Positions 12,034-13,064 of a stretch of 64,000 bases of DNA are shown here, piece after piece (position 1 is the first letter of the stretch; each line of letters begins with the position of its first letter). Made by a program: the position numbers and the translations under genes. Source of the stretch: Escherichia phage MiataMamis; the sequence record PP925834.1; one strand, written 5' to 3'. The notes beneath the pieces were generated by a model. The model had not been told where the DNA came from. It saw nothing but the letters and a program-made list of their open reading frames with translations, and searched no databases.

Positions 12034-12207
12034 TTTATTTTCCTCCCCTTGTTGGGTATCTCTTCTTCCTGATTCTTTTATACTACTTCCCAGGGCCTGG
12101 CGCAACCATTTTATAACTTTCCTCCCTGGTCCGGTCGGACATACCAGCCTGGCCCCGCCAGGCTGCAGCGGTTGGCGCACCTGGTTAGAAAATTTTTTGA
12201 AAAAGTG

Positions 12208-12236
12208 TTGACAGCGGCCCCGCCAGGTGGCATAAT
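12208..12236 (+). promoter_or_regulatory. plus-strand sigma70-type promoter TTGACA-17-CATAAT reading into the non-coding region
   Basis: -35 at 12208-12213, -10 at 12231-12236; no plus-strand ORF downstream; followed by GC-rich hairpins at 12253-12285 and 12395-12430. Confidence 0.5.
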
Positions 12237-12252
12237 GCACTCATCGAAAGGA

Positions 12253-12285
12253 CGGCAGGCACCGGTGACGGGGGAGACAACCACC
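12253..12285. repeat. 33-bp inverted-repeat element, copy B
   Basis: CGGCAGGCACCGGTGACGGGGGAGACAACCACC; just downstream of the plus-strand promoter; related partial copy GGGAGACAAACACCGGG at 12410-12426. Confidence 0.65.
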
Positions 12286-12569
12286 GGGGATGGGCGCTAT
12301 ATAAAATGAGAACGGTTATCATTATCGTCTAAAAATTTATGCGAAAAATCCTTGCTTTCTTTGTCCTGCGTGATACTATAATAACAAGCCGGGGCAACAG
12401 GGGCCGGGAGACAAACACCGGGCCTGCCCGTTATTTAGCAAACGAGAATGATTATCATTCAAAATTCTAAATGAGAACTCCTCGCATTTAATAAATTTAA
12501 TTAGCACGCTAATTACACTCCGTAACAATTTACTATAAAATAGTATCCACTAAAATATTCCCGTATAGA

Positions 12570-12760
12570 AATTTTAAAAATCCATTTCTGAAAACGAAAA
12601 ATCGATTTCGTCCCTAAAAATTTCAGGCCTAGATCCGGAACGATTTCCAGAAAATCCGATTCAGAAAACGAAAAACAGATCGAGTACTGAGAAATTTATC
12701 GAGAAAAATTTTCAGAAAATCCAAGCCCTGAAATGAAAAGTAGATCGAGTACCTGGAAAG
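12570..12760. repeat. iteron-like degenerate tandem repeats (about 65-bp units; cores GAAAATCC, CTGAAAAYGAAAA, GATCGAGTAC)
   Basis: Three consecutive units; related AAATCCATTTT copies at 12925-13030; no ORF of 60 aa or more. Confidence 0.5.
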
Positions 12761-13064
12761 CTGCACCGCAACTTCAAGATAGTGGTTAGATTGTTACCAT
12801 AGAAGGTCAAGGGTAAGTGGAGGAAGTTCTAGTAGAGGGAGGTTAGCATGTGTGGGAAATCTATAATGGTGGCCTGGAATATGGTGCAAACGATAGGATG
12901 AGTTATTCAGCTTGTCGCGCCTACTCTGAAAAATCCATTTTAGTTTTCGATCCATTTTCTGATTTTCTAAGAATTTTAAAATATCCGGCCCGGTGAAATA
13001 TCAAAAGGAGGAAATCCATTTTAGAAATCCCCCTTATACTTGATATGCCAGGAATTTTCAAGTA

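Follow-up and report, generated by a model that had tools for sequence, protein, structure and literature searches.

What is the role of about 1 kb of DNA in which no credible gene can be discerned, set within the gene-dense early region of a virulent phage? We addressed this question for positions 12034–13064 of a 64,000-nucleotide stretch of the genome of Escherichia phage MiataMamis (PP925834.1), which we refer to as the window. The window derives from a Vequintavirus, an rV5-like myovirus of ~137 kb whose best matches are the Escherichia phages FFH2 and Murica (96–97% identity), and the genes that flank the region on both sides are small, early, located on the minus strand and, in every case, of unknown function. 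An earlier reading of the sequence (the original prediction) had singled out a plus-strand promoter, two related GC-rich hairpins, each followed by a GAGAAYGRTTATCATT box, three degenerate tandem units and further short repeats, and had taken the combination as typical of a replication origin or packaging region, possibly with a small structured RNA. All of the features it listed are present where it had placed them and exceed chance. Comparison with related phages supports the view that the region is functional, and indicates that it is a conserved control region that combines predicted host-type promoters facing backwards relative to their neighbors, a putative RNA hairpin, sites matching those of the host regulator Fur, and phage-specific repeats. 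The reading we favor, to which we assign a likelihood a little short of even, is that this ancient region constitutes a Fur-gated, counter-directional non-coding transcription unit, with which a role for the repeat array as an origin would be compatible.

Results

The region is conserved across genera and appears to be non-coding

A query spanning positions 11800–13300 matched 116 phage records, conservation from ~12117 rightwards being found in 113 records, and the core of the region matched 230 records, from phages of E. coli, Klebsiella, Salmonella, Cronobacter, Enterobacter, Proteus, Pectobacterium and Erwinia. When 10 vequintaviruses are aligned, positions 12140–12500 and 12926–13035 are almost invariant, exceeding the flanking genes in conservation, and positions 12720–12925, which include a purine-rich stretch and a 17-codon open reading frame (ORF), are divergent, with insertions and deletions (indels). 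A sensitive search indicated that the core (~12391–12495) is kept at 72–86% identity in Mydovirus, Seunavirus, Certrevirus, Henunavirus and Phapecoctavirus, distant phages that infect the hosts listed above other than E. coli. The core, delimited as 12382–12462, is found again in further genera of the Vequintavirinae, in the Stephanstirmvirinae and in one jumbo-phage contig. Scans of IMG/VR by flank proteins and by motif yielded few further relative loci. The left neighbor, a minus-strand gene of 56 amino acids (11866–12033), and the sequence upstream of it are not common to most vequintaviruses; because the alignments begin at ~12117, we take the left border of the region to be a point of recombination or replacement.

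The statement of the original prediction that no credible ORF spans the region was borne out, as the longest ORFs within 12034–13064 reach at most 53 amino acids and relatives annotate differing ORFs on differing strands. The 17-codon plus-strand ORF (12848–12901), to which a strong Shine–Dalgarno (SD) sequence had been ascribed, does exist downstream of the purine-rich stretch, but it is not conserved: 5 of 10 relatives carry a stop in frame at codon 10, and the SD region is variable. Similarly, a 32-amino-acid minus-strand ORF (12921–13019) is frameshifted in 2 of 10 relatives, and amino-acid replacements are the only changes found among the 10 vequintaviruses in a 43-amino-acid plus-strand ORF (12339–12470). 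In rV5, Murica and FFH2, a minus-strand ORF of 92 amino acids has been annotated; it begins within a box, lacks an SD sequence and, in the window, meets a stop at codon 8. Together with ORFs of 45, 48 and 50 codons, these candidates were rejected as genes for want of conservation. Because the small ORFs are broken or inconsistent among relatives, and because the core carries 1-nucleotide indels between genera, the region is, by these comparative measures, non-coding. (We could not show that the gray 'non-coding' box drawn in the rV5 paper corresponds to this region; the rV5 record annotates ORF198/199 at the locus.)

Two predicted promoters read against the flanking genes

The plus-strand promoter of the original prediction, here called P1 (12208–12236; TTGACA-N17-CATAAT), matches the σ70 consensus at 11 of 12 positions and has a TG extension and a GC-rich spacer. 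Directly 5′ of its −35 element lies an A/T tract that resembles an UP element (AGAAAATTTTTTGAAAAAGTG; 12185–12207, plus strand) and is kept in vequintaviruses; similar tracts, AAAAATTTTTT, recur throughout the region in other genera. Across the first 20 kb of the window, 21 sites combine a perfect TTGACA with at least 10 of 12 matches, and P1 is the sole one on the plus strand. The other 20 lie on the minus strand, that is, on the gene strand, many of them after terminator-like hairpins, a density typical of an early region made up of many short transcription units. P1 is conserved in vequintaviruses, its −35 element being invariant in all 10 and its −10 element reading CACAAT in most, and it is homologous to a promoter of other genera (Pa) that has the same −35 element, a GC-palindromic spacer and the −10 element TATACT. 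By comparative criteria, then, the predicted plus-strand promoter is real.

A second promoter, P2 (12352–12382, plus strand; TTGCTT-N19-TATAAT, or alternatively TTGCTT-N16-TACTAT), precedes the second hairpin and is absent from the original prediction. It is invariant in vequintaviruses, and it is the positional homolog of Pb, a σ70 promoter that stands ahead of the core on the plus strand in all genera; across 10 lineages the −35 and −10 elements of Pb persist, while its spacers of 16–17 nucleotides have diverged. P2 was missed by our consensus scan because of the length of its spacer.

Each promoter is followed by a putative RNA hairpin with a conserved apex

The two related GC-rich hairpins that had been noted in the window do form a repeat family, of which the downstream copy (c2; 12382–12440, plus strand) is the ortholog of an imperfect hairpin of ~55 nucleotides, recovered both by a covariance model and as the minimum free energy structure, with GAGACAAACACC at its apex. 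In an alignment of eight other lineages, the hairpin is imperfect, spans about 55 nucleotides, and comprises a lower stem (AUGGCG/CGYYAU), two short helices in the middle and an apical helix of 3 bp that closes CGAGACAAACAC, the conserved apical sequence being GAGACAAMCACC. In this alignment 81% of the cells pair, as against 35–51% with slid partners, and one pair occurs as CG, UA, UG and GC. Cells with G-U number 13 and those with A-C number 5, an excess that favors the promoter-sense strand. The covariation score lay above those of 500 of 500 shuffles for 19 distinct, related sequences, a count that leans towards structure because the alignment was fitted to the model. A covariance-model search, one of the checks named with the original prediction, found one match per related locus; in the window, the model built from the eight other lineages with the window excluded recovered 12382–12440 with 43.3 bits (E = 2.5e-9). 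These model-based results support the suggestion that the region specifies a small structured RNA.

Two further copies occur in the window. The first (c1; 12252–12287, plus strand), with a CCGGTG/CACCGG stem and GGGAGACAACC in its loop, lies behind P1 and is a diverged paralog, to which the covariance model gives a weak partial match at 12253–12296 (9.4 bits). The third (c3) is part of a promoter–hairpin module on the minus strand at 2332–2420, in which the promoter TTGCAA-N16-TATACT (2420 to 2393) precedes the hairpin (2390 to 2332), and which scores 12.8 bits; positions 12252–12285 of c1 are identical to c3 over 34 nucleotides. Three copies of the 12-mer GGTGTTTGTCTC are present in 64 kb when at most one mismatch is allowed, where 0.30 would be expected, and the third lies at 2353–2364. 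Each of c1, c2 and c3 follows a σ70 −10 element within ~10–45 nucleotides and in the same polarity, although c3 has the opposite genome orientation. That all three copies share the polarity of their own promoter argues for a function in the transcript. The −35 element of the c3 promoter, TTGCAA, lies in the loop of an intrinsic terminator (2430–2403, minus strand), and c3 is followed by a second minus-strand promoter, TTGACA-17-TAACAT (2318–2290), which stands ahead of the gene at 2235–1963 and corresponds to rV5 promoter P168.

The hairpin belongs to no known RNA family that we could identify: Rfam 15 gave no match at threshold in the window or in seven related loci, and only chance-level matches at E values up to 10. 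A tRNA or tRNA remnant was likewise rejected, since ARAGORN found no tRNA in the window or in three related loci (L003, L040 and L044) and the sequence lacks tRNA features. One of these three (L003, 2420–2573), from Klebsiella phage vB_Kpn_K45PH128C2 (OY978796), carries annotations of tRNA-Ile and tRNA-Met on the core of hairpin and Fur-like box; given that ARAGORN detected none at this place, these annotations seem to be spurious or misplaced. Nor did the loop prove complementary to any RNA target of host or phage, the E. coli genomes giving no match and the window only the third copy as an additional one. A relation to the pseudo-ToxI of phage PhiTE, a mimic of a type III antitoxin, was also rejected, as the escape locus lies at 106,714–106,772 and the PhiTE homolog of the region at ~39.6 kb; repeat searches of the region found no ToxI-like tandem repeats of 36 nucleotides.

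The palindromic boxes resemble Fur operators

The GAGAAYGRTTATCATT boxes noted downstream of the hairpins also form a repeat family, and their sequences identify them as palindromes that resemble Fur operators, a likeness that had gone unrecognized. Box 1 (12305–12326) reads AATGAGAACGGTTATCATT on the plus strand, and its minus strand, GATAATGATAACCGTTCTC, matches the Fur consensus at 16 of 19 positions (12308–12326). Box 2 (12441–12462) reads AACGAGAATGATTATCATT on the plus strand, matches at 15 of 19 positions on the minus strand (TTGAATGATAATCATTCTC; 12444–12462) and holds a perfect 15-bp palindrome, GAATGATAATCATTC. A degenerate box 3 (AATGAGAACTCCTCGCATT; 12470–12488, or 12469–12488 as delimited in the repeat family) lies 29 bp after box 2, start to start. 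Within 64 kb, boxes 1 and 2 are the only loci within four mismatches of the Fur consensus GATAATGATAATCATTATC, the mean for shuffled sequence being 0.37.

Relatives carry arrays of one to five boxes, and the consensus derived from 33 boxes in 12 lineages is AATGAGAATGATT(A/C)TCATT. The consensus AATGAGAATCATTAT is also the core of the Fur operator of the aerobactin gene iucA. As 19 contiguous bases, the box 2 sequence TGATAATCATTCTCGTTTG occurs once per genome in ~3,900 E. coli genomes, 56 nucleotides upstream of mntH, and a Fur site of 19.9 bits has been described at the mntH position that matches box 2 (Chen et al. 2007). The commonest start-to-start spacing of boxes in relatives is 29 bp, the same as that between boxes 2 and 3. 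Weaker matches shifted by 6 bp lie beside most boxes (12441/12447 in the window; 4157/4163 in the related locus L001), the dominant pattern being one of separate boxes 29 bp apart. The half-sites of the boxes vary independently and not in a compensatory manner, which argues that the boxes are DNA sites and led us to reject their interpretation as RNA hairpins.

The boxes are always tightly coupled to the promoter–hairpin module, through a 6-nucleotide linker, and they lie ~55–105 nucleotides downstream of the P1 and P2 starts and at least ~30 nucleotides upstream of the next −35 element. The combined promoter–hairpin–box unit is a repeated and ancient module, which the original prediction had not recognized as such. 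The same box arrays are found in three viral contigs outside the Vequintavirinae, and similar arrays in unrelated viral contigs favor a host factor over a phage-specific protein as their ligand. Where the hosts of box-carrying phages have been identified, all are Enterobacterales. One of the three contigs, a 347-kb jumbo-phage contig from IMG/VR (L007, 1260–1470), has two convergent promoter–hairpin-like units around two boxes, inside an intergenic gap of 500 nucleotides. We also considered a Fur-regulated small RNA transcribed on the minus strand from the boxes towards the hairpin, and rejected it: no consistent −35 and −10 elements were found, the best candidate having a 15-nucleotide spacer, and both the balance of G-U and A-C cells and the polarity of the promoters point to the plus strand. 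In the searchable literature we found no paper on Fur boxes in rV5-like virulent phages, the only match for Fur boxes in phages being the cargo genes (sit operons) of temperate lambdoid prophages.

The right half of the region is an A+T-rich array of direct repeats

Positions 12441–12560, at 27% G+C, form the most A+T-rich segment of the region. Within it lie a palindrome, TAATTAGC-AC-GCTAATTA (12498–12515), which is kept with a central C/T variant, and two weak overlapping promoter-like sites found by the promoter scan on the plus strand (ATTACA-18-TAAAAT and TTTACT-16-TAAAAT; 12512–12556), which occupy the place of a strong promoter, Pc (TTGACA-18-GAnAAT), in Seunavirus and Mydovirus. Next come the three units of ~65 bp that had been described from the sequence and that our repeat searches confirmed as 62-nucleotide copies starting at 12559, 12633 and 12698 and 63–73% identical. 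Measured as tandem degenerate units of 62–74 bp (12559–12759, plus strand), each holds an A/T tract, GAAAATCC(A/G)WTTY, GAAAACGAAAA and GATCGAGTAC; Tandem Repeats Finder did not call these long units. They are homologous to three units of ~100 bp in other genera.

The variable middle that follows (12760–12925, plus strand), with the purine-rich stretch and the 17-codon ORF, is poorly conserved and not coding. In loci L040–L044 of other genera, the corresponding middle has about three copies of TTTGAGATA(A/T); the window shows no more than degenerate AAGATAG and TTAGATTG there, and its purine-rich stretch holds several GGA motifs. The region closes with a nearly invariant cluster of direct repeats (12926–13035, plus strand), consisting of AAATCCATTTT or GATCCATTTT and AAATATC(C/A). 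The further AAATCCATTTT copies of the original prediction are thereby accounted for, as AAATCCATTT copies in two repeat families, and the four occurrences of AAATCC[AG][AT]T[TC] in 64 kb all fall in the region and on the plus strand. The cluster corresponds to clusters of AAACCATTTY and AAATATCA in other genera. Across genera, the architecture of the right half is kept and its sequence is divergent, the three units having A5-6T6 tracts and GATCGAG(A/T)AC and the terminal cluster consisting of AAACCATTTY/AAATATCA.

Equivalent loci of other genera carry additional elements

On the plus strand, the order of elements in the window is A/T tract, P1, c1, box 1, P2, c2, box 2, box 3, the palindrome with the 27% G+C segment, the three long units, the variable middle and the AAATCCATTTY/AAATATC cluster. 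Other genera keep this order and add a small plus-strand coding sequence, promoter Pa, an element of ~100 nucleotides, the repeat GTAAA-N5-GTAAA and the strong promoter Pc. The small coding sequence and the ~100-nucleotide element are absent from the window. The latter is nearly invariant; it is found at ~2285–2420 of locus L040 (from phage PVP-SE1) and in five further loci, adjoins a strong promoter (TTGACA-17-TATACT) and reads ...ACGCCACCCCACGGCGAAAAGGCGGGGCTAACGTACCGGGC...GGAAGGTGGATCGCCGGTAG. RNAalifold folds it into two hairpins with one compensatory pair, and it has no Rfam match; on this modeling it is a candidate for an unnamed phage RNA.

The perfect direct repeat GTAAA-N5-GTAAA, which is likewise not present in the Vequintavirus window, ends ~5 nucleotides 5′ of the −35 element of Pb in L040 (~2440–2462) and six other loci. 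It is presumably the CpxR consensus, and as such would point to a second host regulator at the locus.

Discussion

A candidate Fur-gated, counter-directional transcription unit

Our favored reading holds that the region is read mainly on the strand opposite to that of the surrounding early genes. The tandem host σ70 promoters P1 and P2 would each transcribe an imperfect hairpin of ~45–55 nucleotides with GAGACAAMCACC at its apex, after which transcription, ~55–105 nucleotides past its start, would meet 19-bp palindromes that serve as Fur operators (three here, one to five in relatives). Host Fur-Fe2+ would occupy these operators on the infecting DNA, and its occupancy would gate counter-directional transcription into the A+T-rich repeat array, and possibly also the activity of the next promoter. 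With Fur bound, short hairpin RNAs would be made; with Fur unbound, longer non-coding or antisense transcripts would result and might collide with early minus-strand transcription. In this scheme we infer Fur binding, the gating mechanism, the ends of the transcripts and the biological output. The sequence evidence suggests a link between early control or replication and the iron status of the host.

Several findings weigh against this scheme. P2 in the window has a poor 19-nucleotide spacer. By predicted thermodynamic stability, the c1 and c2 transcripts do not stand out (z = −0.8 and −1.8), and the terminator scan called no canonical plus-strand terminator after either hairpin: only GUUAUUU comes after c2, and GGAUGGG after c1, and the minus strand has only a weak terminator site (12225–12209). 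Unlike classical Fur operators, the boxes overlap no −35 or −10 element, and no consistent promoter was found over them on either strand (the closest being TTCTCA-N15-GATAAT). Position 6 is G in 28 of the 33 boxes, whereas the Fur consensus has T. Furthermore, the arrays known for E. coli Fur sites overlap, with offsets of 3 or 6 bp (Chen et al. 2007), whereas the boxes here are separate and have a 29-bp period. Finally, we found no paper in the literature that describes region 12034–13064.

A broader version of the reading, which we consider unlikely, is that in the Vequintavirinae and Stephanstirmvirinae the locus is a non-coding sensor at which host regulators (Fur everywhere, and a CpxR-type site in several genera) bind the infecting DNA and set the output of the counter-directional unit, which would start with the new hairpin and lead into an array of iterons, thereby coupling the initiation of replication or the early program to the iron and envelope status of the host. 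If true, a lytic phage would have built a decision circuit from host regulators and an undescribed RNA motif. The rV5-like phages, with their broad host range, are candidates for use in therapy and biocontrol, and bacteria living in a host normally face iron limitation. If Fur does bind the boxes, a strictly lytic phage would be reading the iron status of its host directly on its own DNA, the dependence of infection outcome on iron would become addressable, and the locus would offer as handles an RNA hairpin motif absent from Rfam, a candidate origin, and mutations of box or loop as a genetic target.

Alternative explanations

The alternative that survives best, though we regard it as somewhat unlikely, is a transcription-activated replication origin, in which the tandem plus-strand promoters would fire into an A+T-rich unwinding segment and iterons for a phage initiator. 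The three long units and the AAATCCATTTY and AAATATC clusters would serve as these iterons. Opening or priming of the origin would fall to the transcript, and single-strand initiation or priming to the hairpins, with Fur in an accessory role, architectural or gating; this account is compatible with the Fur-gated one. It is in keeping with the several same-orientation families of direct repeats that are unique to the region, with the retention of the whole ~1-kb architecture across genera despite divergence in sequence, with the 27% G+C of positions 12441–12560, and with P1 and P2 reading in against the flow of the flanking genes; by analogy, the T7 primary origin and the origin of the lactococcal phage c2 provide precedents. 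The direct repeats, the A+T-rich segment and the inward-reading promoters fit the origin that had been proposed, but a scan of the region found no DnaA boxes, the flanking genes include no recognizable initiator, and no skew switch of the kind associated with replication was found. In particular, cumulative GC skew has no turn at the region and is negative throughout 1–37 kb, consistent with the minus-strand genes. A step in GC and AT skew at 12–13.5 kb (|t| about 3–3.5) has the wrong sign and leaves purine loading similar; because it trades G for A and lies near a shift in G+C content, it is not a replication-type switch, and we did not count it as evidence. The authors of the rV5 study reported changes in skew only where the direction of transcription switches. 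In the window, the sign of both skews flips at ~37–38 kb and again at ~45 kb, marking a plus-strand-transcribed block (~37000–46000). Moreover, the promoter–hairpin module occurs at 2332–2420 without a repeat array, which argues that the hairpin is not specific to an origin.

A second alternative, which we judge quite improbable, is that the palindromes are operators or iterons of a dimeric DNA-binding protein encoded by the phage, either a repressor or an initiator, and that their likeness to Fur sites is incidental. We retain it because of where the boxes stand with respect to the promoters, which is atypical for repression by Fur, the strict 29-bp period of the arrays, and the G at position 6; the asymmetry of the half-sites also fits. 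Against it stand the identity of box 2 to the mntH Fur site at 19 of 19 positions, the 15–16 of 19 matches of the boxes to the Fur consensus, and the consensus core shared with iucA. In addition, box arrays occur in the 347-kb jumbo-phage contig and in a 33-kb contig, both unrelated to the Vequintavirinae, for which a common host factor is the more economical explanation.

Conversely, the boxes might bind Fur simply as decoys, such that replicating phage genomes titrate Fur and derepress host genes for iron uptake and related functions to the benefit of the phage. Each genome does carry multiple high-quality Fur-like boxes, and multicopy Fur boxes derepress Fur-regulated reporters in the Fur titration assay (FURTA). 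However, a cell holds thousands of copies of Fur, against only one to five boxes per genome, so that even a large number of phage genomes would titrate little of it, and a pure decoy would not require coupling to the promoter–hairpin module through a 6-nucleotide linker. We hold this explanation to be very improbable.

Marginally weaker still is the case for a pac recognition region for headful packaging. Some pac sites have repeated short motifs and A-tracts, as does the region, and the public records of two relatives (PP681140 and PP357458) start 250–400 bp from the core, within the equivalent non-coding region. Record starts are usually arbitrary, however; no terminase gene lies nearby, the relative PhiTE has been described only as terminally redundant and circularly permuted, and promoters, an RNA hairpin and Fur boxes would have no role in a pac site. 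We found no evidence for the packaging region that the original prediction had put forward alongside an origin. Least probable of all is a decayed or mis-annotated coding sequence without a function of its own, for which small ORFs in public records can be cited (rV5 ORF198/199, Murica gp179/180 and FFH2 ORF179-181), but in which stops and frameshifts break inconsistent ORFs in some lineages while the nucleotides stay nearly invariant, the core carries 1-nucleotide indels between genera, and the architecture is kept over two subfamilies.

Comparison with known systems

The Fur-gated unit that we favor may be set beside several known systems. Non-coding and antisense RNAs of virulent phages, such as those reportedly found by RNA-seq in Pseudomonas phage PAK_P3, likewise involve host-type promoters that lie in the early region, read against the genes and have no ORF behind them. 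The promoters of the window differ in being predicted, and in their coupling to Fur-like operators and a repeat array, which to our knowledge has not been described.

The nut boxB of λ and put of HK022 are promoter-proximal RNA elements of lambdoid phages, and the early RNA of T7 has hairpins for processing by RNase III. Like them, the element of the window is a stem-loop with a conserved apex, is positioned in the first ~10–60 nucleotides of the transcript, and follows several early promoters, with phage copies in both genome orientations that always have the sense of their own promoter. It differs in showing no similarity to boxA/boxB or put, in having no Rfam match, in that no N-like or Q-like protein was identified, and in that its paired stretches are only 3–8 bp long and interrupted.

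The T7 primary origin has promoters 1.1A and 1.1B followed by an A+T-rich stretch, phage c2 has a transcribed non-coding origin, and the λ origin combines iterons with an A+T-rich stretch. The region resembles these in being non-coding, in the tandem promoters that read into an A+T-rich stretch, and in its several families of direct repeats. The analogy stops at sequence similarity, an identified initiator and a skew signal, which the window lacks, and at the apparent sites for a host transcription factor, which are embedded in the window.

The closest likeness at the level of single sites is to Fur operators such as those of mntH and iucA, with which the boxes share 15–16 of 19 consensus positions, the inverted GAnAAT-C-ATTnTC core and, for box 2 and mntH, 19 bases in common. 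By comparison with these operators, the predicted boxes are carried on the genome of a virulent phage, recur discretely with a 29-bp period and have G at position 6, and they are placed after one promoter and before the next, as opposed to over −35 and −10 elements.

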